DNA from: Alphaproteobacteria bacterium
GTDB lineage: Bacteria > Pseudomonadota > Alphaproteobacteria > UBA828
DNA length: 64,000 nucleotides
Assembly (NCBI GenBank): GCA_965207055.1
Contig: CBDBLP010000002.1
Span: forward strand, 336,152-400,151
Direction of reading: 5' to 3'
The notes beneath the pieces were generated by a model. It was not told the origin of the DNA and did no database searches. It saw only the letters and a program-made list of their open reading frames with translations. Of the stretch, positions 6,115 to 21,609 are shown piece after piece. A program made the position numbers and the translations under genes. Positions within the stretch are counted from its first letter, which is position 1. Every line of letters starts with the position of its first letter.

Positions 6115-6143
6115 GGAGGCAGGGTAACGGTAACGGGTAACAC
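6079..6143. repeat. GTTACC/GGTAAC inverted-repeat cluster spanning the stop codon of the AAA_25 gene
   Basis: GTGTTACCGAAAACCGTTACC (6079-6099) pairs with GGTAACGGTAACGGGTAACAC (6123-6143). As an inverted repeat 17 of 21 positions match, including two perfect 8-bp blocks. Confidence 0.7.
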
Positions 6144-6396
6144 CCCCCGCCAGCTTCCATCGCCGTACCGCGTCGAGCGATCGGCTCATGGCCGAAAGCT
6201 CTGCTTACGGCCATGGATGCACTCCGTCGGATGGACGGCGGCGGGTCACCCGAAGGGCCGGAGCGAAGCGAAGGAGCCGCGCAGCGGCTTGACGCGTCGA
6301 CGGCCGTCCGACACCCCGACAGCGTTCCTCCGAACCTGACCCGGCAACCATCGAATAACCCGATCACCGCACCATCAGATACCGGAAGCGCGCTCA

Positions 6397-6401
6397 GCCG
6401 C
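6397..6401. repeat. 5-bp target-site duplication GCCGC (right copy)
   Basis: It lies directly after the CGCTCA terminus of the transposon. Confidence 0.8.
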
Positions 6402-6525
6402 CGATCACCTCGGCGATCGTGAAGCCCGCGGTCAGCAGCAGCGCCCAGAAGATGCGGGTGGCGTTGTCGCCGTGCGCATGGTGGACGTGCGCGTGGCCAG
6501 CATGACCGTGGTGGTGGGCGGCCAT
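6397..6525 (-). pseudogene. czcD: CzcD-like CDF gene, N-terminal 43-codon fragment
   Basis: Translates to MAAHHHGHAGHAHVHHAHGDNATRIFWALLLTAGFTIAEVIGG and then runs into a TGA supplied by the transposon end (6394-6396). The His-rich N-terminus plus TM1 is typical of CzcD. Confidence 0.8.
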
Positions 6526-6657
6526 CACCGTGTAACCAGCGAATGGTCTGCCGAAGGCACCTGACGATCTCCTTCCGTCAGAACTGGGACAGTCTATTGC
6601 AAAGGGGACATGACGGGCCGCGCTTTCCCGCGATCTGCCGCTGCCCTTGCGGGCAAC

Positions 6658-7704
6658 TCAGCCGAGCGGCGTGTTGAGAAAGGCGATGAACGACACCAGG
6701 CCGACGAGGGTGACCAGTGCGGCGCCGGCGTAGTTCATGCCGTGGCGCAGCACGTTCGCCCCGCCGCCGCCCGAGCGCTCCATGACCCGCATCGCGGCTT
6801 GCCTGGCGAGGATCGCGCCGACCCCCAGCACGCAGATGCTCGAGCCGATACCGAGCGACATCGCCGCGACCAGCAGGGAGCCGGGAACGATCATGTCGTT
6901 GGCCACGGCGTAAAGCATGATCAGCACGGCGCCGGGGCAGGGGACCATGCCGGCCGCGAGCGCCAGAATGCCGCCTTCCGCCTTGCCGCCGTGACTGTGG
7001 CCATGGTGATGGCCGTGGTCGTGATGGTGGGGGTGGTCGTGATGATGAGGCGGGCTGTGCCCGTGGCTGTGATCATGGCTGTGCCCGTGTCCGTGCCCGT
7101 GTGCGCCGCCTGAGCGCGCCCTCAGCGAGGCACGCACGGCCTGGTAGAGCATGTAGAGCCCGATGCCGACGATGATGAGGAAGCTCGCGGCGCGCACGCC
7201 CGGCACGTCCGATAGCCCGAGGCCGAAGCCGCCGCGCAGCACGAGGTCGGCCAGCCAGACGATGACGACGGCGGCGATGACGTGGACGATGGCGATCTGC
7301 ACGGCCATGACAACGCCGCGCATCACCCGTGCCTCGCGCCCGAGGAAATAGGAGACGACCACGAACTTCCCGTGCCCCGGCCCGAGCGCATGGACGGCGC
7401 CGTAGGCGAACGCGACCGCAAGGGCCAGGAGGAAGGCGCCGAGGTTCTCGCCCCGCTCGATGGCGTTCATGTGGAGGGCGACCTCGGCGTTGGCGCGGCG
7501 CTGGAAGTCCATCAGGAAGTCGGTGAAACCCTCGAACAGGCCGCCGTCTTCCTCGACGATCTCGACCTCGACCGGGGCGGGCGCTGCGCCGTCGGTCTGC
7601 GAGAGCGCGAGCGGTGCCGTGAACAGGCTGGTCAGAAGCAGCACGCACACCAGGCCCAGCAGCGCGGCCGGCCTGCGGCGGCGTCTATGGGGCCGATTGC
7701 TCAT
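6658..7704 (-). CDS. RcnA/NicO-like nickel-cobalt (metal) transporter with a His-rich loop
   Basis: 348 aa with the HALGPGHGK motif, the loop HGHGHGHSHDHSHGHSPPHHHDHPHHHDHGHHHGHSHGG, and a VPCPGA motif. Confidence 0.75.
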   Translation of the reverse strand: MSNRPHRRRRRPAALLGLVCVLLLTSLFTAPLALSQTDGAAPAPVEVEIVEEDGGLFEGFTDFLMDFQRRANAEVALHMNAIERGENLGAFLLALAVAFAYGAVHALGPGHGKFVVVSYFLGREARVMRGVVMAVQIAIVHVIAAVVIVWLADLVLRGGFGLGLSDVPGVRAASFLIIVGIGLYMLYQAVRASLRARSGGAHGHGHGHSHDHSHGHSPPHHHDHPHHHDHGHHHGHSHGGKAEGGILALAAGMVPCPGAVLIMLYAVANDMIVPGSLLVAAMSLGIGSSICVLGVGAILARQAAMRVMERSGGGGANVLRHGMNYAGAALVTLVGLVSFIAFLNTPLG

Positions 7705-7710
7705 TGCGGT

Positions 7711-8301
7711 TTACCCCTCGCACGCCAGCGTGACCGGCTGGGGATGGCCGGATTGCGCGCCCTTGCCGCGCGCGATGCGGAACTTGCATCCCGGCGTCAT
7801 CTCGCCGCTAACCAGCAGGAAGTGCCCATCGGAAAAGCTGAAATCCACGAAGTTTTCGCGATCGAACAGGCTGACGGCCACCGCTTCTACCTTCGGATCG
7901 AGGGGCGGCGTAAGGCCCATGGAAAACTCGTAAACGAGGCGTGCCTGCTCGATCCGCGCCGCAAAGCGATCCACGTTGTGGACCTTCTGTTGTTCCTCCC
8001 CCGCCCAGATGTGAACGAAATAGTCTGCGGGCGCGAGCGGGTCGAAGGTCTCGGTGCGCAGGTTCCTGACCTCGAGAGAATTGAGCGTTCCATCCCCGTC
8101 CAGATCGTAGGTTTGGATGGTATGGGCGCTGTAGAAGTCATCGAATGTCCACGAAAACTCCAATCCGCTGACCCGCTGATCGTCGAACGCGACGGTGAGC
8201 GTGGTCTCGACCCACACGTCCGGATTGGCGCGCGCCTCGGCTGCTGCCAGCAGCGGGATCAGTGCGAGTGCCGGCGCCCATAGCCTGACGATCGCCGCCA
8301 T
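7711..8301 (-). CDS. DUF1007-family periplasmic protein, partner of the RcnA-like transporter
   Basis: 196 aa with a signal peptide (MAAIVRLWAPALALIPLLAAAEARA) and the stretch HPDVW-like...LSFSWTFDDFYS. It lies 6 nt upstream of the transporter gene. Confidence 0.65.
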   Translation of the reverse strand: MAAIVRLWAPALALIPLLAAAEARANPDVWVETTLTVAFDDQRVSGLEFSWTFDDFYSAHTIQTYDLDGDGTLNSLEVRNLRTETFDPLAPADYFVHIWAGEEQQKVHNVDRFAARIEQARLVYEFSMGLTPPLDPKVEAVAVSLFDRENFVDFSFSDGHFLLVSGEMTPGCKFRIARGKGAQSGHPQPVTLACEG

Positions 8302-8340
8302 GCTGGAAACTTATGACATGTTAGGTGACATGTCAACGAG
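8302..8340 (-). promoter_or_regulatory. Candidate sigma70-type promoter with two ACATGTCA repeats (possible metal-regulator operator)
   Basis: The minus strand reads cgTTGACAtgtcacctaacatgtcaTAAGTTtccagcATG. TTGACA and TAAGTT are 17 nt apart. ACATGTCA occurs twice, overlapping the -35 element and the spacer/-10 region, and TGACATGTCA is a perfect palindrome. Confidence 0.4.
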
Positions 8341-8408
8341 CCAGCGCACAGGAAATGCGCCGCCGCGCTGCCCTCCCGCGGCTGAACAAGCGAGGTGCCC
8401 GGTGTGTG

Positions 8409-9155
8409 TTAGGAGCTGAGGTCCACAGGCCCGAGGGAGATCTGCGGGGACGAGTCGGTCAGCGCCTCCATCACCTTCCTCTGGCTGCCGCGCAGCGCGT
8501 GCTCGGTCAATTGCGCGGCTCGCTCGCCGTCGCCCTCGATCAGTGCCTCGACCAGGTCGTCGTGGAAGTGGTGGAACTCGTGCTCCCGCCGCTGCATGGC
8601 GAGCCCCAAGTGCACGATGCGCTCGTGCTGCTCCATGAGGCCGACGACCAGGGTGACCAGGCGCTGGTTGCCGGAACTCTCCGCAACGTAGCGGTGGAAC
8701 TCGCGATTGGCCCGCAGGTAGGCCGCCTGGCCGGCCTTGTCGCCTTCCGGATAGGTCGCGTGCGCAGCCTCGTTGAGTGCGCGCAGGCGCTCGGCATCCA
8801 CCTTGCCGGCGGCGAGCCTCACGGCAGTGACGTCGAGCACGAGGCGGAGCTGGAAGATCTCCTGAATGTCGCGCAGCGTGACCGGGGAGACCGCGTTGCC
8901 CTGCCGCCCGCGCGAGACGATCAGCCCTTCCTGACGCAGGCGCATCATGGCGCTGCGGATGGGCGCCTTGCTCATGCCGTAGCGCGCGACGAGCAAGCCC
9001 TCGGAGATCTCCTCGCCCGGCTGCAGGGCGCAGGAGATGATCTCGTCTTTGATCGTCGCGTAGGCGATATCGTTCAGGTTCGGCTCGGCCGTTCGCGTGC
9101 TTTCGTTCAGCGATTCAGAGGGTTGCGGGGCGGCACGATGTTTCGTGGATGGCAT
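8409..9155 (-). CDS. GntR-family transcriptional regulator (FadR/FCD subfamily)
   Basis: N-terminal wHTH (ISEGLLVARYGMSKAPIRSAMMRLRQEGLIVSRGRQGNAV) with an all-helical FCD-like C-terminal domain. The start is placed at the ATG at 9155 (MPSTKH...). Confidence 0.8.
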   Translation of the reverse strand: MPSTKHRAAPQPSESLNESTRTAEPNLNDIAYATIKDEIISCALQPGEEISEGLLVARYGMSKAPIRSAMMRLRQEGLIVSRGRQGNAVSPVTLRDIQEIFQLRLVLDVTAVRLAAGKVDAERLRALNEAAHATYPEGDKAGQAAYLRANREFHRYVAESSGNQRLVTLVVGLMEQHERIVHLGLAMQRREHEFHHFHDDLVEALIEGDGERAAQLTEHALRGSQRKVMEALTDSSPQISLGPVDLSS

Positions 9156-9636
9156 GGATCGTCGGGTCCTTGCCGGCTCCTGCCGGCGTAGGCGGCCGCG
9201 CGGCGCGCCGATACTGCCCGAACGTAGCGCAAGTGTCTGCCGCTCGCGAGGGCCGGCACAACCGGGCGCGAGCGCCGCTGCGAATCGGCGAGAGACCGAC
9301 GCGTCGCGGCTGGTTATCGCACACAAATGCAGCTATAATACTGATTATGATATATCTTATACGCTATAGAATAAACTGAGAACTGTATACCATATCTAGG
9401 GCAAAAATCTATATATGGTGGGATATGATAGACTTACCAGCGACTCGAGATAGCTCGGATGCATTCGTGAACGCTAACGCCCACGAACGCTGGCCTTCTT
9501 CTGGTGCCCCGAACCGCTAATTCCGCTCATCGAAGAATGCTGTTGTCGGCCCGCGGGCTGAGGCGCTTCTGCCTCCGCTGGCCAGGCCTCGTCGTCTTCG
9601 CCGTCGTCATCGCGTTCTCAGCGCTCTGTAGCCGCG

Positions 9637-9692
9637 GAAAAGTCGTGGCCAGTCACGCGAAAGGTCGTGGCCAATCGCGCGGTGGCCACGAC
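9637..9692. repeat. Iteron-like repeats: two direct 22/23-bp copies plus one inverted copy of the GTCGTGGCCA core
   Basis: GAAAAGTCGTGGCCAGTCACGCG (9637-9659) and GAAAGGTCGTGGCCAATCGCGCG (9659-9681) match at 20 of 23 positions. The inverted core TGGCCACGAC is at 9683-9692. Confidence 0.7.
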
Positions 9693-9920
9693 GAGTAGAA
9701 AATAGCGGGTGCGAAGCTGCGGTGTGGAACAGTTAGCCGGAGCGCGCGATGGCGCGGATAACCGCCTCGCGGGAGGGCGCACTACTCCCCGCGCCGCCGG
9801 TGTTTGCGGGCTCTACGGAGACTCGCTGCGGCCACCCTGAAGGGTCGGTGCATTGCCCCTGCATGGCCCCATCACGCCTGTTTCAGGGCCGAGGAAGCGG
9901 GATTGTCGCACCCGAGTGCC

Positions 9921-10391
9921 CTACACATGCCAGCGCCTGTCCCGGCCTACCGGATCGAACAGCCGAGGCCGGCGGCCGTTGCGCTTCGCCCCGGTCCAAT
10001 CCACCGCAACTATGGTCGCGTCCGCCAGGCCTGCCCCACGGAGGTCCGCCATGGAAAAATCCGCCGCAGTGAGGTCAGCGCCCATCATGGCTGCGTCACA
10101 CAAGCGAGCGGACGCGAAGCAGGCGCGCGTTGCGTCCGCTTGTCGCAGGTCAGCCCCGATCAGCACCGCCTGGCGGAGCGAAGCTGCGATCAGGTCCGCC
10201 GAATGAAGCACCGCGCCGGTGAGGTTGGAATTGCTGAGGTCGCTGCACGTCAAATCCGACCCAGAGAGGTCAGCCTGCACGAGCCGAGCCCCGGCCAGCC
10301 GCTTGCACCGCAGGTCCAGGCGCCGCAGATCGGCGCCGGCAAAGTCCCGCTCGCCGGCCGCGTATCGGGACAGCAATTCATCGGCCGTCAT
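9921..10391 (-). CDS. Pentapeptide-repeat protein
   Basis: 156 aa. A(D/N)L-type pentapeptide periodicity is visible throughout (ADLRRLDLRCKRLAGARLVQADLSGSDLTCSDLSNSNLTGAVLHSADL...). Confidence 0.85.
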   Translation of the reverse strand: MTADELLSRYAAGERDFAGADLRRLDLRCKRLAGARLVQADLSGSDLTCSDLSNSNLTGAVLHSADLIAASLRQAVLIGADLRQADATRACFASARLCDAAMMGADLTAADFSMADLRGAGLADATIVAVDWTGAKRNGRRPRLFDPVGRDRRWHV

Positions 10392-10484
10392 CGAGGCGTC
10401 TATATCGCCCTGCCACGGCCCGCGACAAGCCCCTTCCCAACATCGCGCGGGAGGTAACAGGCGGCATCTGAGTGCCCGCCTGCA

Positions 10485-13400
10485 TCAATACTCCACTTCG
10501 GACGAAGGGCTGGCGATCACGTTATCGCGGAGTTGGTTGTACCGGTCCCGCATCCTGCGCTCGATCTCGTCGGCAACCTCTTCGGCGACCTCGCGCGGAT
10601 CGGCGGCGTTTGAATGGACCGTGAGAGAACCGATGACCGACTGGATATTTACCGTGCCCGCCCGCTCGGCCCTGCGCTGACGGCGCCCCCTCGGCCCGGA
10701 CGCGGCCGCCTCCGCCTCGGGCTCCGGCGGTGTCCACACCTGATCGCCGTGGCGCTCGGCCATATCTGCGGCCCGCCGCCGCCGCCGGCGCTGAACGTGC
10801 GGAACCTGTCTGAGCCCGACGCCGCGCCAGTTTCCGATCTCCGGTGGCGCGTTCGGGTCGCGCTTGGGAATCAGGTCGAGGATCCACTGCGCCGCGTTCT
10901 CGCTCTCCTTCGAGGTCCAGCCTGGATCGAATGCCGCCTTGGTGGCGGCGCGGCCCGCGCTCTCGCCGCCCATAAAGCCACCCAGGCCGGCCAGGAGCGA
11001 CCCGCCGAATCGGATCGGTCCCGGCAGGGATCGCATGAGGCTGCCCGCGACACGCCCGGCTGCTGAAGATCCAGCCAAGCCGCCGGCGAGGCCGCCCACC
11101 TCGGGTGCGACCTGGTCGTCCGGTATCGCGCCTGTAGCGATGTCGTGTGCCGTGAGGCCCATGAGCGCACCGGCGCTGGCCGGGCCGAGGCCGCGGGTAA
11201 GGAGCCGCCACAGGCCGCCAGCCCTCGGCCGCGAGCCCGGACCAGTGCCGCTGAGGCGGCCTTCGCCGACCCTTGGTCGGGTGCCGGGGCCTGTGCCGCT
11301 GAGACGACCTTCGCCGAGACGTGGCCTGGTACCGGGTCCTGTGCCGCTGAGGCCGCCGCCCCTGGGTCCCGCCCGCGAGCCGGGGCCTGTGCCGCTGAGA
11401 CGCCCGCCGCCTGACCTGGGCCGCGTCGTTGGACCTGTGCCGCCCAGGTGCGCCGGTGTGAGCCGAGGCCGCGAGCCGGGGCCTGTGCCGCTGAGACGGC
11501 CTTCGCCTGCTCTCGGCCGCGAGCCAGGGCCGCTGCCGCTGAGACGACCTTCGCCGACCCTTGGTCGGGTGCCGGGGCCTGTACCGCTGAGACGACCTTC
11601 GCCGAGACGTGGCCTGGTACCGGGTCCTGTGCCGCTGAGGCCGCCGCCCCTGGGTCCCGCCCGCGAGCCGGGGCCTGTGCCGCTGAGACGACCTTCGCCG
11701 AGACGTGGCCTGGTACCGGGTCCTGTGCCGCTGAGGCCGCCGCCCCTGGGTCCCGCCCGCGAGCCCGGACCAGTGCCGCTGAGGCGGCCTTCGCCGACCC
11801 TTGGTCGGGTGCCGGGGCCTGTGCCGCTGAGACGACCTTCGCCGAGACGTGGCCTGGTACCGGGTCCTGTGCCGCTGAGGCCGCCGCCCCTGGGTCCCGC
11901 CCGCGAGCCGGGGCCTGTGCCGCTGAGACGCCCGCCGCCTGACCTGGGCCGCGTCGTTGGACCTGTGCCGCCCAGGTGCGCCGGTGTGAGCCGAGGCCGC
12001 GAGCCGGGGCCTGTGCCGCTGAGACGGCCTTCGCCTGCTCTCGGCCGCGAGCCAGGGCCGCTGCCGCTGAGACGACCTTCGCCGACCCTTGGTCGGGTGC
12101 CGGGGCCTGTACCGCTGAGACGACCTTCGCCGAGACGTGGCCTGGTACCGGGTCCTGTGCCGCTGAGGCCGCCGCCCCTGGGTCCCGCCCGCGAGCCGGG
12201 GCCTGTGCCGCTGAGACGACCTTCGCCGAGACGTGGCCTGGTACCGGGTCCTGTGCCGCTGAGGCCGCCGCCCCTGGGTCCCGCCCGCGAGCCGGGGCCT
12301 GTGCCGCTGAGACGCCCGCCGCCTGACCTGGGCCGCGTCGTTGGACCTGTGCCGCCCAGGTGCGCCGGTGTGAGCCGAGGCCGCGAGCCGGGGCCTGTGC
12401 CGCTGAGACGGCCTTCGCCTGCTCTCGGCCGCGAGCCAGGGCCGCTGCCGCTGAGACGACCTTCGCCGACCCTTGGTCGGGTGCCGGGGCCTGTACCGCT
12501 GAGACGACCTTCGCCGAGACGTGGCCTGGTACCGGGGCCTGTGCCGCTGAGGCCGCCGCCCCTGGGTCCCGCCCGCGAGCCGGGGCCTGTGCCGCTGAGA
12601 CGCCCGCCGCCTGACCTGGGCCGCGTTGTTGGACCGCCGCCCAGCCCGGCGAGCCGCGTGAACAGGCGGCCAGCCCCGCGAAGAGCCTTGAACGCGTACC
12701 AGCTGCCGGCGAGCAGGCCCACCCCGACCAGCAGCTCATCCTTGAACGAGGTGAGCGCGGTCACAACCTCGCCGACCGGACCGGTGAGCTTGTCCTGCAT
12801 CCAGGCATCGACGTCGGTCTTGGTCTCCTGGACCTTCGCGGCGGACGTTTCGGCCATCCTCGCGGCATCGCGCGACAGCATGTCCGGCGGCGCCTCGATC
12901 GTGAGAAAGCGTTCGTAGTCGGCCCGCCCCTGCGCCGTGAAAAGGCCGGAAATCGCGCGTACCCCTTCGGCGTCGATAATCCCCGACAGGCGAGTGATGT
13001 CGCCGTCTACTGCGTCGACGACCTCCTTGACGATGCGGTCCAGCGGGCGGAAAGCGCCCGTGGCGTCGCGAACGTTGACGCCGAGCTGCTCCCAGATCAG
13101 GTCGATCTTCTGAGCATCGGAGAGCGTGCGCAGGAACGCTTCCACGGCGGTCGTCGCCTGTTCGCTCGATCCGGTGGACTGGCGGGCCATCTGGGCGAAC
13201 GCGCCGAGCTGGCGAGCGGCGGCGGGGCCCTGGTAGCCGAGGCGGGCAAAGGCCGAGGTCAGACGCTCGCCCTGGGCGGCCATGTTGCCGACCGTAAACG
13301 CGCCGGACTTCCCCTGCGCCGTCCACAGGTTGAAGGCCCGCGCGACGCCGGCCGGATCGGTGATGCCGAGTTTGCGCATCTCGGCGGCAAGGCGGCCGAT

Positions 13401-14174
13401 GGCGTCGCCAGTGCCGCCCGATCCCTGAATTGCCTGGGCGACCAGCACCAGATTGTCGCGCACAAAGTCCAGGTCTCCCGTCTTCTCGATGACTGCCTCG
13501 GCGGCGGCGAGAAGCTGCGACGGATCGAGGCGTATTTCCTTCAGGTTGGCAGTCGCGTTCACTTCCTGCTGAAACCGTTTGATCTCTTCCCTGGACCGCC
13601 CGGTCTGTATTTCGAGCCGCGCGTAGCGCTGCTCCAGGGTGAGCATGCGCTTGAGGCCACTGGCGATGGCAAAGCCGCCGCCTGCAATTCCGAGGACGCC
13701 TGCGCCCAGGCCGATTCCGCCGCGCAGCCTGCCTGCGGTACGGGCCGCGAGGCCGGCTTCCGTGCGGAATCCCTTCAGGCGCCGGGTGAGGCGGCCAAGG
13801 GACCGCTCGCCGTCCCGGCCGGCCCGGCGGAGCCCGTGGCCGAGGCGGTTTGCTTCCTGGGTGGTCCGCTGGATCTCGCGCCGCGCGCCGCGCGCGCCCT
13901 CACGGACGCCGCGGCCCATGAGCGAGCCGCTGCGGCTTGCCTTCATCAATCCGCCGCTGAGGCGGCTCGCTTCCTTGGTGGTCCGCTGGACTTCGCGCCG
14001 TGCGCCGCGCGTGCCCTTGGCGACGTTGCGGCCCATGAGCGAGCCGCTGCCTGCGGCCTTGCGGAGGCTGCCGCCGAGGCGCTCGGTGTCCTGCGCCGCC
14101 CCCTTCGCGCCGCGGCGGAAGCGCCCCGCCGCGAGGTCGAGGAGGACGCCTACGCGATAGGTGGAATCGGCCAT
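10485..14174 (-). CDS. Phage tail tape-measure-like protein with a large internal G/P/R-rich repeat array
   Basis: 1,229 aa. Residues about 180-420 resemble the TP901-type tape-measure N-terminal domain (LEIQTGRSREEIKRFQQEV..., LGITDPAGVARAFNLW..., AFLRTLSDAQ...). Gly-rich hydrophobic segments follow. Confidence 0.7.
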   Translation of the reverse strand: MADSTYRVGVLLDLAAGRFRRGAKGAAQDTERLGGSLRKAAGSGSLMGRNVAKGTRGARREVQRTTKEASRLSGGLMKASRSGSLMGRGVREGARGARREIQRTTQEANRLGHGLRRAGRDGERSLGRLTRRLKGFRTEAGLAARTAGRLRGGIGLGAGVLGIAGGGFAIASGLKRMLTLEQRYARLEIQTGRSREEIKRFQQEVNATANLKEIRLDPSQLLAAAEAVIEKTGDLDFVRDNLVLVAQAIQGSGGTGDAIGRLAAEMRKLGITDPAGVARAFNLWTAQGKSGAFTVGNMAAQGERLTSAFARLGYQGPAAARQLGAFAQMARQSTGSSEQATTAVEAFLRTLSDAQKIDLIWEQLGVNVRDATGAFRPLDRIVKEVVDAVDGDITRLSGIIDAEGVRAISGLFTAQGRADYERFLTIEAPPDMLSRDAARMAETSAAKVQETKTDVDAWMQDKLTGPVGEVVTALTSFKDELLVGVGLLAGSWYAFKALRGAGRLFTRLAGLGGGPTTRPRSGGGRLSGTGPGSRAGPRGGGLSGTGPGTRPRLGEGRLSGTGPGTRPRVGEGRLSGSGPGSRPRAGEGRLSGTGPGSRPRLTPAHLGGTGPTTRPRSGGGRLSGTGPGSRAGPRGGGLSGTGPGTRPRLGEGRLSGTGPGSRAGPRGGGLSGTGPGTRPRLGEGRLSGTGPGTRPRVGEGRLSGSGPGSRPRAGEGRLSGTGPGSRPRLTPAHLGGTGPTTRPRSGGGRLSGTGPGSRAGPRGGGLSGTGPGTRPRLGEGRLSGTGPGTRPRVGEGRLSGTGPGSRAGPRGGGLSGTGPGTRPRLGEGRLSGTGPGSRAGPRGGGLSGTGPGTRPRLGEGRLSGTGPGTRPRVGEGRLSGSGPGSRPRAGEGRLSGTGPGSRPRLTPAHLGGTGPTTRPRSGGGRLSGTGPGSRAGPRGGGLSGTGPGTRPRLGEGRLSGTGPGTRPRVGEGRLSGTGPGSRPRAGGLWRLLTRGLGPASAGALMGLTAHDIATGAIPDDQVAPEVGGLAGGLAGSSAAGRVAGSLMRSLPGPIRFGGSLLAGLGGFMGGESAGRAATKAAFDPGWTSKESENAAQWILDLIPKRDPNAPPEIGNWRGVGLRQVPHVQRRRRRRAADMAERHGDQVWTPPEPEAEAAASGPRGRRQRRAERAGTVNIQSVIGSLTVHSNAADPREVAEEVADEIERRMRDRYNQLRDNVIASPSSEVEY
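11215..12645. repeat. About 30 tandem in-frame copies of a 48-bp (16-aa) unit organised in higher-order repeats
   Basis: The unit is GEGRLSGTGPGSRPRx. The TPAHLGGTGPTTRPRS variant recurs at 528-bp and 384-bp spacing (11 and 8 units). Long stretches are nearly identical at the DNA level. Confidence 0.85.
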
Positions 14175-14177
14175 CGG

Positions 14178-14666
14178 CTAATTCGGCGGCCCGGCACCGG
14201 CGAAGCGCCATTGCGTGCCTGGAGAGGTATGCACGGCCGCGCGGTTCTTGGTCGGGGTGGCAACCCCGGACAGGTCCGCGTCGCCGACCCAGGTGCCGCC
14301 CATGTCCGCATCCGTGAGCACGGCGCCCGCCAGGTCGACGGCGCTCATATAGGCGTGGCGCAGGTCGGCACGCTCGAGGTTCGCGCCAGCCATATAGGCA
14401 TTGGTCAGGATCGCATGGCGCAGGTCAGCGGCGCCCAGGTACGCGCCGGCAAAGCAGGCTCCGATGAGATTCGCCCCCCGAAGATCCGCGCCGCCGAGAA
14501 AGGCGCCAGCGAAGCGCGATCCCTCCAAATCGGCAGCTTGGAGACAGCACCCGGTGAGGTCCGCCCCCGCAAAATCGGCGAAGGGCAGACGCGCCGCCCA
14601 GAAGTCAGCATGCGACAGGTCGAAGCCGGCAAAATCACGGCCGGCTACGAGCAGTGCGGCCGCCAT
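14178..14666 (-). CDS. Pentapeptide-repeat protein
   Basis: 162 aa with continuous pentapeptide periodicity (ADFAGADLTGCCLQAADLEGSRFAGAFLGGADLRGANLIGACFAGAYLGAADLRHAIL...). Its stop is 4 nt upstream of the tape-measure start. Confidence 0.85.
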   Translation of the reverse strand: MAAALLVAGRDFAGFDLSHADFWAARLPFADFAGADLTGCCLQAADLEGSRFAGAFLGGADLRGANLIGACFAGAYLGAADLRHAILTNAYMAGANLERADLRHAYMSAVDLAGAVLTDADMGGTWVGDADLSGVATPTKNRAAVHTSPGTQWRFAGAGPPN

Positions 14667-14667
14667 G

Positions 14668-15666
14668 TCAGGCGGCCCGCGCGACCAAGTCGAAATTCGG
14701 ATCGTTCACGAGCGCGACGGATGACAGGCCGGTTACCTCGCCCGCGCTGTCGTGCGTGAGGGCCGGCGACAGGTGCCGGTACTCCCCGTTTGCGATCGCC
14801 GCAGCGGCCGCGTCGCCGAGCTGCATGTCCGCGTCGAGTCCGCCGTTCCCGTTGACGCGGAAATTCGAGAGCCAGCCCTCGGCCCGCGTGCTGCCGGCGA
14901 AGGTCGGCGAAACGCGCTCCGACCTATGGTCGAAGTCGATGCGGGGCGCCACGGCCTGCGCGTTGATGCGCGCCGCGAGCGCGGCCATGCTCTTGACCCG
15001 AAAGCGGCGGCCGTCGCGGCCTGTCAGGTAGCCGCCGCGCGGGGGAGGAATCACCTCCATCGTGAGCGAAGCGCCGCGCAGGTTCAGGGAAACCACCCAA
15101 GGATTGAGTGCAGAATCCGACGCCGCCATCATCGCCCGCTGGCGCGGCGGTGCGCTGCCCGGCGTTTTGCTGGTCAGCGCCCTATAGAATACCGCTCGCG
15201 CGTCGCGGTGCTCCATGGCGACCTCGCCGAGCCGATAGAACACGCGGGCGGTGCCCGCTTCGTCCGGATCGCCGCTACCGAGATCAATGTCCATGACCTC
15301 GGCCACCGCGCGCTTCTCCGCAGGCAAGGCGGCCACCCATGCCTGGACTACCAACTTGATGCTCTTGTCGCCGCCCTCCGCCATGAGGCCGATGGCGAAG
15401 GCGTCCCGCGAGGCGAAGTCAACCCCGCCCATCGCCTCGGCCACCACGTCGTGGGGCGTAGGTATGAGCGCCTGGCGAATCTGTTCCTGGTCGACATGCA
15501 TGCCCATGGCGCCCACGCCGTACCAAAAGCACGCCGTGGCCTTTTCGCCCTTCTCGCCGGCCGCGTAGAGCGGCCCGAGGCCTACCGATTCGGCGGCGCG
15601 CTTGCGCCGAGCCTCGGCGGCCCCGCACCATGCAGCGATTATGCTGTCCGGACCGCCCAACATCAC
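14668..15666 (-). CDS. Protein with a C-terminal Mu gpI-like (Mu-like_Pro) prohead protease domain and an unknown N-terminal half
   Basis: The C-terminal half (IPPPRGGYLTGRDGRRF...RIDFDHRSE...AEGWLSNFRVNGNGGLDADMQL...ANGEYRHLSPAL...GLSSVALVNDPNF) parallels Mu gpI landmarks recalled from memory: RARDGRP, IDYEHQ, AGWF, EYRYISPVF, ALTNxPAL. Confidence 0.6.
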   Translation of the reverse strand: MMLGGPDSIIAAWCGAAEARRKRAAESVGLGPLYAAGEKGEKATACFWYGVGAMGMHVDQEQIRQALIPTPHDVVAEAMGGVDFASRDAFAIGLMAEGGDKSIKLVVQAWVAALPAEKRAVAEVMDIDLGSGDPDEAGTARVFYRLGEVAMEHRDARAVFYRALTSKTPGSAPPRQRAMMAASDSALNPWVVSLNLRGASLTMEVIPPPRGGYLTGRDGRRFRVKSMAALAARINAQAVAPRIDFDHRSERVSPTFAGSTRAEGWLSNFRVNGNGGLDADMQLGDAAAAAIANGEYRHLSPALTHDSAGEVTGLSSVALVNDPNFDLVARAA

Positions 15667-16175
15667 GCCGCCCTCTGGCCGCGCAGCTGCGCCAGGCGGT
15701 CTTCGGCTGCCCGCTCGGCCGGAGTGAGTGCCGCCCGGCGGGCCTTCTCGGCCTCGGCCGCTTCGCGCTCGGCCGCCTTGCGCTCGCCTCTCTCTTTCGC
15801 CAGGCGCTCGCGCTCGGCTTTCTCGGCCGCCTTGCGCTCGGCCTTCTCGGCGGCCTCGTCCAGCGCGCGCTGCTGGGCCTCCGCCTCCCGCATTTCGGCG
15901 GCGAACTGGCGCGCCTCGATCATCCGCGCCTGGATGCGCTCAATGATTGTGACGGCATTCTGGTGCGCGGCAGCCACCTTTCTCCAGTCGTCAACGGCGG
16001 CTTCGCAGTAGTTCTCATCGCCGCTGTACCGGCGGCCGCATATCGACCCCTGAAACTCGGCGTCGTGCGAAACTCGCGCCAGCTCTCGCCGGTCCTTGGT
16101 ATCAGCCTCGCCGAGAGCGGCCAGCGCCTCCGCCAGGGTGGCCGCGTGGCGGCCGGGATCACTCCATTTGCTCAT
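15663..16175 (-). CDS. Coiled-coil, charge-repeat protein (scaffold-like), function unknown
   Basis: 170 aa from the ATG at 16175, which forms an ATGA overlap with the upstream gene. The C-terminal half is AEKAERKAAEKAERERLAKERGERKAAEREAAEAEKARR. Confidence 0.5.
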   Translation of the reverse strand: MSKWSDPGRHAATLAEALAALGEADTKDRRELARVSHDAEFQGSICGRRYSGDENYCEAAVDDWRKVAAAHQNAVTIIERIQARMIEARQFAAEMREAEAQQRALDEAAEKAERKAAEKAERERLAKERGERKAAEREAAEAEKARRAALTPAERAAEDRLAQLRGQRAA

Positions 16176-16549
16176 GTTTCCTCGCTTCGTTGCGGCCCGT
16201 CCGGGCCGGCCAGTATCGACGTTGCGTCCGCCGCGAGTCTGTGTGTCGCCCGCGCCAGCGCATACGCTCTCAGTTGCTCGCGCGTCCAGCCGCTGCGACC
16301 GGTTCCGGCGACATTGCGGGCGGCCGGCGCCAGGTGGCGCGCCTCCGCCGAATCGGGGTGGTCGCGCCTGTAAAACGGTTTGCTGTAGATCTCGAAGGTC
16401 CCAGGGGCGGGCGCAAACGGTCCCATGAGCTCGCTGAGATATCGGGCGGCTTCCTTCGTTGTCAGGAGGCCTTCGTATGCAGCGAGGCGGGCCATGGTCG
16501 GCTGGCTGTCGTTTCCGGGTTGCGGCAGGTCCACCATGCGATACCACAC
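16172..16549 (-). CDS. Small putative DNA-binding protein (HTH-like LLTTKEAARYL)
   Basis: The ORF is coupled to the downstream gene. The motif GLLTTKEAARYLSEL resembles MerR/excisionase-type HTH proteins. The real start may be the internal ATG at 16495. Confidence 0.4.
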   Translation of the reverse strand: MWYRMVDLPQPGNDSQPTMARLAAYEGLLTTKEAARYLSELMGPFAPAPGTFEIYSKPFYRRDHPDSAEARHLAPAARNVAGTGRSGWTREQLRAYALARATHRLAADATSILAGPDGPQRSEET

Positions 16550-16640
16550 TTCACCGGGGGTTTTTGGAACAAAACGGAGAAAATTGCAGAGGGCCCTGGG
16601 GGCGGCTCACCACGGGACACGACCGGACAATGTGTGCGCG

Positions 16641-17780
16641 TCAGACCACCCGATCGGCGGCGCGTGCGGCACCTTCCTCGGGCTCTTCGTCGTCCATCTG
16701 AAGGAAAAGCGCACGGATATCGGCTTGGAGGCGCTCGGACTCCTCGTCGCTCAGATTCCTTCCTAGGGGACCAATCGTGGTGATAACCAAATCAATGATT
16801 TGGTCGAAGAGGTCATTGTGGTCGCCAACACTGGGCGCCTCAGCCCGATCGCGATTCGCCAAGGCCTTGACGCGTGGCGGCAGGGGCTGTCCCGGTTCAA
16901 GCCTGCCGTCTCCGTGCTCATCTTGCCAGCGATTGAGCCAGCGGCGAATTGTCGAGACATTGGGTGCCTCGCCATGGTGTTCGATCAGCGCCTGTCGCGC
17001 ATCCTTGGCCGTGAGATGGCGACCGCGAAGCGTGGCGAGGCCCTCGAGCGTCTTCTGCATCGACGCGTCCAGCGACGTCGGTCTTCCCGTTCGGGGCCTG
17101 TCGAGTAGCGCCTCCTGTCGCGCTATTGGGTTGGCGATCCCCTTGACCTTGCCGCGCCAAGCCCCTACCGCAGATGCTGACACGCCTGCCTCTTTCCCAG
17201 CTATGGCATCAGCCTCGGCGCGCGACTTGCCCTCGCTCTTGAGGGCGTCGGAGCGCTCGATCACTGCAAGCCGTTGCGTGGCCTGTTCGCGTTGGGCTTC
17301 TGTGGCGGGTTCCGAGGCGCCGGCACCCAACACCGCTTTCGTTCCGGCGTCCTGCAGCGGCTGGTGCGGAATGGCTGCAACGGTCAGTGCCGCCACCTCC
17401 CGGCGTAAGGTGGCAATCTCGTTGAGAAATTCTCCAAGGCGGTTGCTGAGAGCGGCTTGACTGCGCTCTACGCGCTGCCGGTCTGGCGCCTCATCGATGT
17501 CGCCCGCGCCGCCCGCGAGACCCCACTCTCGAGGCGGGCCGATATAGAACTCAAGGCCCAGAGCGTCACATACGTCGGCGACGCGCGAAAGCTTTGGCTC
17601 GTGCCCGTCGAGGATGCTGCGTATAGCATCACGCGGCAGTCCGGCTGCCGTTGCGACGCCGGCCCTGGAACGACGGCCAAGCGCCGCCTCGACCGCCTTC
17701 CGAAAATCATCGAGAACTGGCGGCATAGGGTACTTGTGCCACGTTTGCCGTGCGAACACAACGGGGCGCGTGGAATACAC
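16641..17780 (-). CDS. Repressor-like protein: N-terminal XRE-type HTH plus a domain shared with the MuA-like transposase N-terminus
   Basis: The XRE-like stretch is GVATAAGLPRDAIRSILDGHEPKLSRVADVCDALGLEFYIG. Residues about 160-237 align with the transposase N-terminus. The gene is divergent from the early operon, as for Mu c. The start is uncertain (GTG 17780 or ATG 17729). Confidence 0.6.
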   Translation of the reverse strand: MYSTRPVVFARQTWHKYPMPPVLDDFRKAVEAALGRRSRAGVATAAGLPRDAIRSILDGHEPKLSRVADVCDALGLEFYIGPPREWGLAGGAGDIDEAPDRQRVERSQAALSNRLGEFLNEIATLRREVAALTVAAIPHQPLQDAGTKAVLGAGASEPATEAQREQATQRLAVIERSDALKSEGKSRAEADAIAGKEAGVSASAVGAWRGKVKGIANPIARQEALLDRPRTGRPTSLDASMQKTLEGLATLRGRHLTAKDARQALIEHHGEAPNVSTIRRWLNRWQDEHGDGRLEPGQPLPPRVKALANRDRAEAPSVGDHNDLFDQIIDLVITTIGPLGRNLSDEESERLQADIRALFLQMDDEEPEEGAARAADRVV

Positions 17781-17827
17781 TCGACGAATCTTTTGACTCT
17801 TCGTGTAATTCGTGCCACGATCGACGT

Positions 17828-18142
17828 ATGGATTCGACGCTGAGGTTGATGGAGCTCTATTCGGAGCACCGCGGCATTGCCCCGACGACGTTGGGCAGGC
17901 TCACGGTCAGCTCCTCTACTGTGGCAAAGCGCATCGGCCGAGGAGCGGTCACGATCCGCACCACCCGGAAGATTGAACGTTGGCTTTCCGACCATTGGCC
18001 AGCGGGCCTTGAGTGGCCATCCGATATCCCTCGACCGACGCCCAACCAATCACAACCTGCGGCCCGGCCAGAGGGGGGGGCGATGACTGACCCCTCGCCC
18101 GGCACCGGCGCGCGCGCCATCCGAAACCAACTTCACACCTGA
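17828..18142 (+). CDS. Small protein in the Ner position (first gene of the early operon)
   Basis: The internal ATG at 17828 gives MDSTLRLMELYSEHRGIAPTTLGRLTVSSSTVAKRIGRGAVTIRTTRKIERWL. The call rests on position and size only. Confidence 0.4.
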   Translation: MDSTLRLMELYSEHRGIAPTTLGRLTVSSSTVAKRIGRGAVTIRTTRKIERWLSDHWPAGLEWPSDIPRPTPNQSQPAARPEGGAMTDPSPGTGARAIRNQLHT

Positions 18143-18156
18143 CAGGGAGGATCACA

Positions 18157-18480
18157 ATGAGCGACGCGACACATGGCGACAATAGAAGAACGGTTGCGCT
18201 GGCGGGCGACGCGCTGACGGCCGTGGGCGACGTGCGCAGGCTCTCTGAGCACTTCGCCTGGTATGCGGACCAGGTCGCCTCGGAGGACGCTAAGGGGTGC
18301 AAAAACGGTCTCGCAGTCCTGGAATCCGCATTGCGCAGCATGAATGCGCTCGCAGACGAGGCGGAGCGGCCGCTCGAAGAGGTCTATGACCGGGCGTGCA
18401 GGGAGGAGATGGACCATGGCTCTCACCAGGAACCAGTACGCAGTTGTCCACATTGCGCGGAAGGCGCTCGGCCTGTCTGA
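18157..18480 (+). CDS. Hypothetical early-region protein
   Basis: 107-aa ORF in operon context. Its 3' end overlaps the GemA-like start by about 65 nt, so its extent is uncertain. Confidence 0.3.
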   Translation: MSDATHGDNRRTVALAGDALTAVGDVRRLSEHFAWYADQVASEDAKGCKNGLAVLESALRSMNALADEAERPLEEVYDRACREEMDHGSHQEPVRSCPHCAEGARPV

Positions 18481-18880
18481 CGGGGAATATCGCGAGGTTC
18501 TGCGAAAGATGGCCGACGTGGAGAGCTCCAAGGATCTCGACCAGGACGGCTTTGAGCTGGTCATGCAGGGCTTCGCCGCCATGGGCTACCGCTCTGATTT
18601 CACCAAGAGTTTCTACGGCCGCCGTCGAGATCGGGCCACACCGGCGCAGGTCTCCCGAATCCGCCAGCTCTGGGGCGAGTACACCGGGGGCGGTGGCGGG
18701 CAACTCTCCCTCGACAATTGGATTGAGCGCACCTTCCGGGTCTCTGCGCTGAGATTTCTCACCGCCGAGCAGGCGGAGAAGGCTGTCAAGGCCTTGTGGG
18801 CCATGCGGAATCGCCAGAAGGCCGAGCGGCGCAAGCGGCGGACCACCGCCACACCCGCTGCGGTGGGGCCTGCGGAGTGA
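18416..18880 (+). CDS. GemA-like (Mu gp16, DUF1018) regulatory protein
   Basis: MALTRNQYAVVHIARKALGLSDGEYREVLRKMADVESSKDLDQDGFELVMQGFAAMGY... is the typical DUF1018 opening. Confidence 0.65.
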   Translation: MALTRNQYAVVHIARKALGLSDGEYREVLRKMADVESSKDLDQDGFELVMQGFAAMGYRSDFTKSFYGRRRDRATPAQVSRIRQLWGEYTGGGGGQLSLDNWIERTFRVSALRFLTAEQAEKAVKALWAMRNRQKAERRKRRTTATPAAVGPAE

Positions 18881-20622
18881 CACGCACGGCGCACCACGAG
18901 CCCCGCGATGATGGGGCCTGGGAACGCGCCAGCGAGGCGCAGCGCGCTGCGGCCACGGCGCGCCTCGAAGCCGTGCGGCGAGCCGTTGCCCTCCACGCCG
19001 AAGGGCTTCCGTGTGGAGATGCGGATGCGCTCGCGGCCGAGGAGGCCGGCGTCTCGGCCAAGTCTGTCAGGCGTTGGCGTAGGGCGGTCAAGCGCGCGCC
19101 GCGCGGCATGGAGCTCGGCGCGCTGATTGACAGGCCCCGCACCGGCAGGCCGGCGGGCAAGTGGAGCGGCGCCGGGGCGCGGGAGCTCTGGCGTTTCTGG
19201 TGCAGCGACTACATGCGCGAGGAGGCGCCGCCCGCGCCGGCCGTACACCGGCGCCTCGCCGACGTAGCGGGGCAGCGGGGCTGGGAGCTCCCGCCGCTCG
19301 ACGCCTTCGTCCGGCGCACCAGGAAGGAATTCACGCGGACGGAGATCGTCCGTGCCCGGGAGGGCGCACTCGCGGCCATGAACCTGGTGCCCCACCAGAC
19401 CCGCTCCGTCGCCGGCCTCAAGCCGCTGGACATCATCAACGGCGACGGGCGCCGCCACGACGTGCTGGCGACGCTGCCCTCCGGCAAGGAGGGGCGCCCC
19501 GTAATCTGGGCGTGGCAGGACGTGCGCACGCGCAAGATCCTCGCCTGGCGCGCCGGCGAGACCGAGAGCGCCGACCTGGTGCGGACCTCGCTGCACCAGG
19601 TCATCGACGAACATGGCGTGCCCGGCCGGGTCCTCATCGATTCGACCCGCGCCGCATCGGCAAAGTGGGCGACGGGCGGACAGCCCGGCCGCAAGCGCTG
19701 GCGCTCCACCGACGAAGAGCTGCCAGGCCTGCTGAAGACGCTGGACATCGGTTATTCGGCGACGAAGGTGGACCGGGACGCGGCCGGCCGGGGCAAGGGC
19801 CGCGGGCGGGCCAAGCCCGTCGAGCGCGCGTTCCTCGATCTCGCCAACCATATCGACACGCACCCACTGCTGGCCGGCGCCTACACCGGCCGCTCGACGG
19901 TCGACCGGCCCGAGACCCACCGCATGCGTCCGGTGCCGTGGGAAACCTTCATCGACGTCGTCACCCGCTGTGTCGCCGAACACAACGCCCGCGAGGGGCG
20001 GCAGACCGAGGCCGCTGCGGGCCGGAGCTTCGACCAGGTGTGGGCGGAGGAGATCGCCGACACCGTCGTCAGCCGCCTGTCTCCGGCGCAGGCGGCGATC
20101 CTGCTGCTCGCGGCCGAGCCCTCCACGATCGACCGCTCCGGCTGCCTGATGCTGAAGGCGGGCAGGGGCGCAGGGCTGCCGGCAAACCGCTACCACAATC
20201 CCGACCTGGTCGAGCGCACCGGTGAGCGGGTGGTCGCCCGCTTCGATCCCGAGGACCTGCACGGCACGGTCCACGTCTTCGACGCCAAGGGACGCTACGT
20301 CTGCGCCGCCGGCTGCATCGCGCCCACCGGGTTCGGCGACACCGCTGCCGCCAAGGAGTGGGAGGCCGCGCGCCGACGCCGGCGCCGCAGCGCCGAGCAA
20401 GGGCTCGCGGCGCAGCGAGATATGGACGAGCTGCAACGCACCATGGCGGCGCTGCCCCCGACGACGGCAGCGCCCGAGCCCCAGCCCGCCGCCGTCCGTC
20501 TCGTGACGGGCGAGAGCGTGCCGCGGCCCCCGACCGGCGGTGATGTGCCAGCCCCGCGCGGCCGCAGTGCATTCATGACGGCGCTCAGGACCGTCCGGCA
20601 GATCGAGGAGAGCGAAGAATGA
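18877..20622 (+). CDS. MuA-like DDE transposase
   Basis: The GTG at 18877 overlaps the GemA-like stop (GTGA). N-terminal HTH modules are present. The catalytic core has DIINGDGRRHD, VLIDSTRAAS and AKPVERAF. The C-terminal region is typical of Mu-transposase-family proteins. Confidence 0.75.
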   Translation: MTRTAHHEPRDDGAWERASEAQRAAATARLEAVRRAVALHAEGLPCGDADALAAEEAGVSAKSVRRWRRAVKRAPRGMELGALIDRPRTGRPAGKWSGAGARELWRFWCSDYMREEAPPAPAVHRRLADVAGQRGWELPPLDAFVRRTRKEFTRTEIVRAREGALAAMNLVPHQTRSVAGLKPLDIINGDGRRHDVLATLPSGKEGRPVIWAWQDVRTRKILAWRAGETESADLVRTSLHQVIDEHGVPGRVLIDSTRAASAKWATGGQPGRKRWRSTDEELPGLLKTLDIGYSATKVDRDAAGRGKGRGRAKPVERAFLDLANHIDTHPLLAGAYTGRSTVDRPETHRMRPVPWETFIDVVTRCVAEHNAREGRQTEAAAGRSFDQVWAEEIADTVVSRLSPAQAAILLLAAEPSTIDRSGCLMLKAGRGAGLPANRYHNPDLVERTGERVVARFDPEDLHGTVHVFDAKGRYVCAAGCIAPTGFGDTAAAKEWEAARRRRRRSAEQGLAAQRDMDELQRTMAALPPTTAAPEPQPAAVRLVTGESVPRPPTGGDVPAPRGRSAFMTALRTVRQIEESEE

Positions 20623-21578: not shown

Positions 21579-21609
21579 GTTTTCTCAGCGAACACCGGGG
21601 CGCGTAGCG

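Follow-up and report, generated by a model that had tools for sequence, protein, structure and literature searches.

A compact Mu-like transposable element carrying a block of phage morphogenesis-derived genes: a possible helper-dependent satellite

A 64-kb stretch of alphaproteobacterial DNA (lineage UBA828; assembly GCA_965207055.1, contig CBDBLP010000002.1, positions 336,152 to 400,151; hereafter the window, whose own numbering is used unless another locus is named) harbours a Mu-like element bounded at 9627–23144 and 13,518 bp long. It is a complete Mu-type transposable unit, having a c-like repressor, GemA, MuA, MuB, TG...CA ends and a 5-bp target-site duplication. In addition, it includes a block of six genes, among them a head-protease fusion, a tape-measure gene and two pentapeptide-repeat genes. 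Together with nine other loci from metagenome assemblies, it makes up a family of compact Mu-like transposable elements that had not been described before. Such evidence leads us to propose, with a probability of about one half, that the compact element is a helper-dependent mini-Mu satellite of a related full-size Mu-like myophage. An earlier note on the window had taken the six genes for an orphan block merely adjacent to a Mu-like transposition module; instead, block and module belong to a single element, whose ends are defined and which is flanked by a target-site duplication.

The element, its ends and its insertion site

The ends were located by following repeated GTCGTGGCC motifs near position 9640. 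Three such repeats occur at the left end (9642 and 9664 on the plus strand, 9684 on the minus strand) and are likely to be transposase binding sites. The element begins with 5'-TGTAG and finishes with CTACA-3', and a terminal motif of 22 nt, TGTAGnnnCGGnnAAGTCGTGG, is common to both ends in inverted orientation. Outside the termini, both ends are flanked by the pentanucleotide CGCTC.

9622–9626, no strand: target-site duplication, left copy CGCTC, identical to 23145–23149
9627–9920, plus: left end of the element, starting 5'-TGTAG, with three GTCGTGGCC repeats; inverted match to the right end
22654–23144, plus: right end of the element, last bases ...CTACA-3'; matches the left end in inverted orientation
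23145–23149, no strand: target-site duplication, right copy CGCTC, identical to 9622–9626

Similar ends were found in three of the other compact loci (L002, L007 and L152), and the right end of the window element is 71% identical to the ends of L006 and L007. One listed open reading frame (ORF) starts at 23075, within the right end, and is spurious.

Removing the element along with one copy of the duplication joins 9504–9626 to 23150–29233 and restores an uninterrupted ORF of 2,068 codons, coding for a signal-anchor-like N-terminus followed by twelve Calx-beta domains. The insertion point thus lies between codons 41 and 42 of this giant gene, and the signal-anchor-like N-terminus is cut off; the insertion probably inactivates a surface or secreted Calx-beta protein. 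Both halves of the interrupted gene are still intact and in frame, and since the gene has not yet decayed, the insertion is recent.

Otherwise, the window consists of ordinary chromosome, with GntR, NicO, Calx-beta, xanthine-dehydrogenase-type, AtuA, BamA, RseP and LpxD/I/B genes. The presence of LpxI, a G+C content of 70% and the Rhodospirillaceae labels carried by related phage proteins point to an alphaproteobacterial host. Besides those of the block, no virion genes occur elsewhere in the 64 kb, just as the earlier note had stated, and among all ORFs of 9627–23144 there is no terminase, portal, major capsid, sheath, tube, baseplate or recognisable lysis gene. Lacking particle-building genes, the element cannot build virions itself.

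The element is organised as two divergent units: the c-like repressor gene followed by the six-gene block on the minus strand, and the transposition genes on the plus strand.

The six-gene block

All six minus-strand genes noted earlier at 9921–16549 were confirmed as intact and co-oriented. Listed in transcriptional order, they are:

16172–16549, minus: HTH125, small conserved protein of 125 amino acids (aa); its helix-turn-helix was called by eye only
15663–16175, minus: CC170, 170 aa, globular N-terminal half and charged coiled coil; conserved, without a family
14668–15666, minus: ProtFus, 332 aa, N-domain (residues ~1–185), linker and gpI-type head-protease domain (186–332); Mu-like_Pro
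14178–14666, minus: PRP_B, pentapeptide-repeat protein (PRP) of 162 aa, mildly acidic, with a 3-nt spacer to the tape-measure start; PF00805, E=4e-32
10485–14174, minus: TMP, tape-measure protein of 1,229 aa, net charge +90, conserved parts 1–510 and 985–1229; PF10145, phrog_973
9921–10391, minus: PRP_A, pentapeptide-repeat protein of 156 aa, near-neutral, core gene of the family; Pfam PF00805, E=2e-21

From HTH125 to TMP, successive genes meet in an ATGA overlap, a TGATG overlap, a 1-nt spacer and a 3-nt spacer, while 93 nt precede PRP_A. Judging by these junctions, the block is translationally coupled from HTH125 through TMP, and the tight packing reported earlier holds up to that point. The coiled-coil gene had been given as 294 aa; it really encodes 170 aa, its start overlapping the stop of the 125-aa ORF. 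As for the start of ProtFus, it is likely the ATG at 15663.

HTH125 itself proved to be a genuine gene, with conserved counterparts in L152 (71% identity), L005 (64%) and L151 (54%); the protein has no family match in Pfam, PHROGs or NCBIfam. We also considered HTH125 as a truncated Gp27 small-terminase-like protein and rejected this idea, BLASTP giving no real similarity.

Pairwise ratios of nonsynonymous to synonymous substitution rates (dN/dS) are 0.2–0.5 for all six block genes, and MuB gives 0.31 in the same comparisons. None of the six ORFs is disrupted relative to its closest homologue in L152, so the check for frameshifts, proposed earlier as a way to expose decay, gave no sign of it. 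These values point to purifying selection as the force maintaining the block. A scan of the block for promoters and terminators gave nothing above shuffle expectation.

A rebuilt head protease and its coiled-coil partner

Family searches bore out the earlier tape-measure, pentapeptide and gpI labels, with one correction: the protease gene encodes a domain-swapped fusion. Residues 212–326 of ProtFus alone match the N-terminal third of Mu-like_Pro (E=3e-20; positions 7–128 of the 330 in the Mu gpI profile PF10123), and the PHROG of head maturation proteases is matched with E=8e-27. Residues 186–329 are 62% identical to residues 8–158 of a genuine phage protease from L003, encoded in a full Mu-like head module composed of Gp27, terminase, portal, MuF, protease, cement and capsid genes. 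Across 23 aligned sequences of both the compact and the phage class, D244, H247 and S300 are invariant; given this invariance and their spacing, we infer that they are the putative catalytic residues.

Genuine proteases run on into a scaffold half of ~170 residues. In contrast, all aligned compact-class proteins (13/13) terminate directly after the protease domain, and instead of the missing scaffold half they have a conserved N-domain of ~185 residues. A search of 1.84 billion representative proteins with this N-domain returned 7 matches, all within the ProtFus family. The N-domain is predicted to be all-helical in an AlphaFold2 model of low confidence (predicted local distance difference test, pLDDT, 58 for ProtFus). 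Foldseek found no match for this model in PDB, and in BFVD there were only weak matches of the C-terminal domain to Mu-like I and prohead proteases, the N-domain being uninformative.

A neighbour-joining (NJ) tree without support values groups the protease domains of the fusion type in a single clade; its sister group, the phage proteases, is of about the same depth. By this topology, the fusion arose once and has persisted ever since, and ProtFus is best understood, on this sequence comparison, as a domain-swapped fusion and not as a remnant.

CC170 homologues (35–82% identity) are encoded in all compact loci, always directly upstream of ProtFus, and share the invariant C-terminal motif ALTPAERxAExRL. 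No match to CC170 was found in Pfam, PHROGs, NCBIfam or PADLOC. That CC170 or the N-domain might be a diverged phage scaffold was rejected after profile–profile comparison with genuine C-terminal scaffold halves (probability 0.1%); a comparison with ~50 proteins of three full-phage loci gave 7% at best.

The tape measure

The TMP assignment rests on PhageMin_Tail PF10145 (E=6e-13, 49.5 bits against a cut-off of 33.2) and on the PHROG tape-measure family phrog_973 (E=2e-25). The N-terminal 510 residues are 61–72% identical to TMPs encoded in the contractile-tail modules of L008 and L009, in the order sheath, tube, TAC_7, TMP, gpU, gpX and gpD. Nowhere in the window is there a tube, sheath, gpU/X/D or chaperone gene.

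Between its conserved parts, the window TMP contains an expanded tract of repeats:

11227–12626, minus: tandem-repeat tract within the TMP gene, 29 periods of 16 residues; Tandem Repeats Finder, period 48/96/384 nt

The tract (residues 528–976; consensus ~GEGRLSGTGPGTRPRL) is Gly/Pro/Arg-rich, has a net charge of ~+65 and keeps a motif spacing of exactly 16 residues 28 consecutive times. Two ORFs overlapping it, of 684 aa (10864–12918, plus) and 622 aa (10871–12739, minus), are by-products of these G+C-rich tandem repeats and not genes. Tandem repeats occur at one central site in all TMPs of the lineage, the full phages having 1–4 units, and TMP length ranges from 839 to 1,229 aa in the compact elements versus ~800–890 aa in related full phages. 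Since a different unit was expanded at the same site in each lineage (16 residues in the window, 66 in L007 and 13 in L001), the sequences imply repeated, independent changes of TMP length.

Unlike the protease domains, the compact-element TMPs interleave with those of full phages in a simple NJ tree, which was built without bootstrap support and with two context-anchored phage sequences only. In addition, TMP has diverged more than any other gene when the window is compared with L152, its closest relative (TMP at 5069–7588 there): identity is 62–65%, versus 82–92% for neighbouring genes; PRP_B, ProtFus and PRP_A are 83–92% identical in this pair. This mosaic pattern, together with the interleaving, suggests either fast evolution of TMP or its recombination and exchange with phages.

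The pentapeptide-repeat proteins

Eight of the nine other loci, namely L001, L002, L004, L005, L006, L007, L151 and L152, contain a homologue of PRP_A (48–88% identity), that of L007 being split by a frameshift; none was identified in L149, where the contig is cut. The location of PRP_A varies, and it adjoins an element end in the four elements in which gene and end were both located (window, L002, L007 and L152). PRP_B is more fixed, standing between ProtFus and the tail-chaperone gene (TAC) or TMP in 6/9 other loci (L001, L006, L007, L149, L151 and L152) and being absent from L005. The dN/dS values are 0.22–0.27 for PRP_A and 0.24–0.34 for PRP_B. Computed from sequence only, the net charge of PRP_A is +1, with an isoelectric point (pI) of ~7.7 in 4/5 orthologues, and that of PRP_B is −6, with a pI of 4.9 (4.2–5.1 among orthologues).

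In the earlier note, the two PRPs were linked to gyrase and to Mu replication. On such a reading, they would, as DNA mimics akin to Qnr and MfpA, act on gyrase and aid or regulate Mu-type replicative transposition. We consider this highly unlikely. It is true that both are genuine pentapeptide-repeat proteins, for which the right-handed quadrilateral beta-helix of Qnr, MfpA and McbG may be expected, that there is weak similarity to the structures of MfpA and of Qnr (E between 1e-10 and 1e-6), that PRP_B is mildly acidic and that the element carries GemA, which in Mu has been linked to DNA supercoiling. However, both score far below the curated NCBIfam cut-offs (32–33 bits against 240 for Qnr, and 31–42 bits against 360 for MfpA), among proteins of known structure their sequences come closest to generic repeat proteins, cyanobacterial or designed, and PRP_A is near-neutral in most orthologues. 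Moreover, PRP_B is coupled to morphogenesis genes and not placed in a replication operon, the genomic context is one of morphogenesis and not of resistance or toxin immunity, and small stand-alone pentapeptide proteins are scattered over at least 364 phage records of many types. The proposed link to gyrase is therefore unsupported.

A strict-threshold search for PRP_A homologues returned one relative, located in a context rich in insertion sequences (IS). In Ralstonia phage PQ43W (L015, 40372–41172), a pentapeptide-repeat gene lies in a small opposite-strand accessory cluster between a head-morphogenesis (MuF-like) gene and the head maturation protease gene, a further instance of a pentapeptide protein beside a head protease.

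The family of compact loci

The 332-aa ProtFus has at least 13 full-length relatives with 51–88% identity, all in metagenome assemblies. Context look-ups of these relatives and tblastn mapping yielded ten compact loci in total: the window, L001, L002, L004, L005, L006, L007, L149, L151 and L152. The CC170–ProtFus pair is present in 10/10 of them, usually accompanied by PRP_B, TAC, TMP and PRP_A, and no terminase, portal, capsid, sheath or tube gene was found in any. Genuine relatives of the protease and of TMP, on the other hand, sit in complete head and contractile-tail modules (L003, L008 and L009). A search for the same arrangement in other genomes had been suggested earlier as a check; in 10/10 compact loci, ProtFus relatives were never found among the genes of a complete prophage.

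The gene order of the window is matched by L152, L007 and L006: repressor, (small HTH gene), CC170, ProtFus, PRP_B, TMP and PRP_A, beside GemA–MuA–MuB, the L152 contig ending within MuA. L001, L149, L151 and L005 are more distant; only in these four compact loci does a TAC_7 tail-chaperone gene precede TMP, and L001 and L149 additionally have a Gp27 (small-terminase-like) gene. In L002 and L004, TMP is lacking.

Several of these elements are bounded. After that of the window, the element of L002 is the second bounded case; it has the same kind of ends, is 11.9 kb long and is flanked by its own duplication, GGGGG, at another site. Next to it, at ~2090–2125 of this locus, another Mu-like element terminates (...CCCACGACATATGAACATTTACA), separated from the compact one by GGGGG alone, so two Mu-type elements are inserted end to end. 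The element of L001 is ~12.5 kb long; no clear target duplication was found there, and an IS abuts one end. In L004, an element of ~8.5 kb (~2906–11446), with a PRP_A-like gene, a 683-aa putative transposase, GemA, CC166 and ProtFus, is inserted within the MuA gene of a full-size Mu-like prophage, splitting it into 12863–11457 and 2899–2621; it is bounded by an inverted repeat of another kind (ACGGAnTnTACnAAATGGGAC), which CTAG flanks. The relatives with both ends mapped thus span 8.5–12.5 kb, against 13.5 kb for the window copy, and the flanks of the window element match none of the seven loci L001–L007. As bounded copies with their own ends and duplication occur at other sites, we conclude that compact elements move as units.

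Beyond these assemblies, the N-domain profile found no member in GTDB (185,579 representative genomes), IMG/VR or the JGI metagenomes. A mixed protease profile gave only four distant matches among GTDB genomes, all of the full-phage type. Scans with the terminal motif hit 13 loci in viral contigs and at least 120 in metagenome contigs; these were rejected as chance matches, none encoding a relative of an element protein.

Regulatory and transposition genes

The remaining genes of the element are as follows:

16641–17780, minus: Rep379, c-repressor-like regulator, first gene of the minus-strand unit; HTH_32
18157–18480, plus: small conserved gene of 107 aa, first of the early operon; resembles a 109-aa ORF of L152 by eye
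18344–18880, plus: GemA homologue; PF06252, E=1e-19
18796–20622, plus: MuA-type DDE transposase; DDE_2 (E=3e-49), HTH_Tnp_Mu_2, Mu-transpos_C
20619–21578, plus: MuB-type AAA+ target-capture protein; AAA_22, Phage-MuB_C; phrog_296, E=4e-48
21520–22653, plus: Rec377, repeated recombinase-domain-like HTH units, last gene before the right end; weak PF07508 match

The Rep379 homologue of L007 has Phage_CI_repr and HTH_32 domains. Residues ~153–289 of Rep379 resemble the N-terminal DNA-binding region of the element's own MuA, which parallels the classic relationship between Mu c and MuA. On the plus strand, the order is small conserved gene, GemA, MuA, MuB and Rec377. The likeness of the 107-aa gene to the L152 ORF, which also lies upstream of GemA, concerns the N- and C-termini and was judged without an alignment, and the true start of GemA is probably near 18410–18480. 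Rec377 is conserved in L002, L006 and L007; it contains 3–4 tandem copies of a motif (...AIADALNAAGVLTPSQQRA...) like the DNA-binding recombinase domain of large serine recombinases, without a catalytic domain.

Origin of the block and possible role of the element

The six-gene block draws on separate late-region sites of Mu-like myophages, one contributing the head protease and another the tail chaperone/TMP pair, with two new components, CC170 and the N-domain, added. The earlier note left a choice between a very recent deletion and a selected, repurposed module; it is the second that agrees with our data. Simple decay would mean that a once-complete Mu-like prophage lost its late genes so recently that the surviving ORFs are still intact. 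Internal deletions would indeed leave the ends and the target duplication in place, and two of the genes are clearly phage-derived. Nevertheless, ten loci share the compact layout, at different insertion sites and with protein identities as low as 51%; the fusion protein is of one origin and forms a deep clade; dN/dS stays at 0.2–0.5; and two conserved components have no counterpart in the full-phage loci examined. Taken together, these observations refute decay, to which we attach hardly any probability.

The satellite reading is supported by the combination of genes: the element keeps its own regulation and its own replication and integration genes while lacking most virion genes, as is characteristic of satellites. 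Candidate helpers also co-occur with the family, since the L004 element lies within a full Mu-like prophage and two pairs of loci come from the same samples (L001/L003 and L006/L009); ERZ25766727 and ERZ21830300 are samples with both compact and full elements. Some lineages retain Gp27, and at 13.5 kb the element is about one-third of a Mu-type genome of assumed size. We picture the following course of events. Upon derepression, the element would amplify by transposition and would be packaged by the headful into particles of a related full-size Mu-like myophage. CC170 and the re-targeted protease might act on helper procapsids, either remodelling them toward a ~13-kb size or sabotaging the heads. 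The element's TMP, with the chaperone in some lineages, could combine with the helper's tube, sheath and baseplate into chimeric tails, as in the PLE satellites discussed below, and by the same kind of analogy the enlarged TMP of the window would give longer tails. The PRPs might serve as accessory factors; PRP_B may act on the element's own or the helper's tape measure, because it is acidic and coupled to a very basic TMP. It is tempting to go further and suppose a transposition-based class of satellites with a two-pronged kit, in which a scaffold-free, re-targeted protease and its coiled-coil partner are directed against capsids while a private TMP, with PRPs as partners or inhibitors, is used for tails. 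For this fuller scheme, the odds seem to us somewhat less than even.

Several observations weigh against a satellite. The repressor gene precedes the block on the same strand, and no recognisable terminator stands between them; for this reason, the block might be active in the lysogen, as would be more in keeping with a role in defence. The N-domain and CC170 are unlike any known capsid-size or scaffold protein compared, and TMP is dispensable to the element, given L002 and L004. No helper phage was identified in the 64-kb window. The ProtFus family is absent from the viral contigs of IMG/VR, where the full-length profile found none, so no member has been seen in the virion fraction. The helper genome is assumed, after Mu, to measure ~37–40 kb. 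Finally, several of the loci come from low-coverage long-read assemblies with frameshifts.

Part of this evidence would suit an autonomous mini-Mu whose anti-phage cargo, expressed in the lysogen, poisons the assembly of related Mu-like phages, the element itself staying unpackaged. The free protease would cut head proteins too early, and a decoy TMP together with the PRPs would block tail assembly. Prophage defence genes often sit downstream of the repressor on the same strand, as the block does. The protease lacks the scaffold half that follows the domain in its genuine relatives, and one element (L004) is found within the MuA of a full prophage. Interference with tail assembly is also an established strategy of prophages and satellites, being known from Tai systems (PMC11364771) and from the Rta protein of PLE11 (PMC12987554). 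Still, full phages such as that of L004 also carry late genes downstream of the c-like gene on the same strand, which makes this position inherited and not diagnostic, and PADLOC gave zero matches for nine element proteins. The chaperone, the full-length TMP with its conserved termini and the Gp27 gene of some lineages fit a use in assembly better, and without packaging, the spread of a chromosomal transposon from cell to cell is hard to explain. Overall, we find interference as the sole function unlikely, though a more serious contender than either decay or an action on gyrase; it is, moreover, compatible with a satellite lifestyle, the two not being mutually exclusive.

Significance

Satellites, satellite-encoded tape measures and mini-Mu elements are already known separately. 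To our knowledge, however, recombinases are the means of integration in every phage satellite that has been studied well (P4, PICIs, PLEs and newer classes), and we found no transposition-based satellite in the literature searched. A satellite driven by Mu machinery, if true, would represent a new route to phage parasitism and a natural counterpart of mini-Mu tools. Its tape measure would fit the recent finding of chimeric tails and extend such tails to another bacterial group, and the lineage-specific repeat expansions predict altered tail lengths.

The family also offers a clean evolutionary experiment, in which one event detached a head-maturation protease from its scaffold half and fused it with a new domain, the product being kept while related phages diversified. 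Identifying the substrate of ProtFus could show how capsid assembly may be redirected or blocked in a manner not known before. Small phage pentapeptide-repeat proteins, widespread and so far unexplained, would gain a testable context beside a tape measure. Even if the block were an interference cassette only, defence cargo of this phage-derived type would still be new for a transposon.

Comparison with known systems

A parallel is provided by the PLE satellites, in which capsid remodelling is carried out by an external scaffold, TcaP; the corresponding candidates in the compact element are the protease fusion and the coiled-coil protein. PLEs of Vibrio cholerae, parasites of phage ICP1, put their own TMP, TAC and hub into chimeric contractile tails otherwise built of helper parts, one of their proteins, Rta, blocks the helper's TMP, and putative tmp genes also occur in other satellites (PMC12987554). 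PLEs and compact elements are alike in being mobile, in lacking shell genes and in having an own TMP related to that of a contractile-tailed phage, along with the chaperone in some lineages. They differ in that PLEs integrate by a recombinase and replicate as episomes, while the compact element relies on MuA/MuB transposition. The PLE TMP is ~20% identical to that of its helper (PMC12987554), whereas compact-element TMPs share 61–72% with full-phage TMPs, and, unlike in PLE, no hub gene or Rta homologue was identified in the compact element.

EPIP satellites of Mycolicibacterium encode a TMP as well; compared with the helper, they form particles in which the head is smaller and the tail longer and more variable (PMC12822802, preprint). 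The window element is similarly small and TMP-encoding, with a TMP likewise longer than those of full phages. However, EPIPs have a serine integrase, a small terminase, head–tail connectors and a capsid or scaffold gene, they live in actinobacteria with siphovirus helpers, and they have no sequence relationship to the compact element.

The pairs P4/P2 and SaPI/80alpha resemble our case in the proportions of the element, one-third of a Mu-sized genome, and in the placement of head-assembly-related genes near the regulators. Their capsid factors Sid, Psu and CpmA/B are scaffolds and not proteases, and no similarity of these to element proteins was detected; that the compact element might redirect capsids is what we infer. 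The helper–satellite pair of Pseudomonas AH14a/b was considered as a precedent and set aside, being unrelated to Mu-type elements.

Regarding Mu-like myophages themselves, the compact element shares their transposition module, repressor, GemA, end structure and 5-bp duplication. The layout common to the element and the full phage of L004, with early genes toward one end and the repressor and late genes toward the other, is what we take to be the BcepMu type. The element differs in lacking ~25 kb of lysis, head and tail genes and in its rebuilt protease gene. Laboratory mini-Mu, made of Mu ends and the A and B genes, transposes alone and is packaged by the headful only with helper Mu. Like it, the compact element combines Mu ends and A and B genes with the lack of virion genes; yet mini-Mu constructs are engineered deletions with markers, while the compact elements are a natural, diversified lineage with a conserved, morphogenesis-derived operon.

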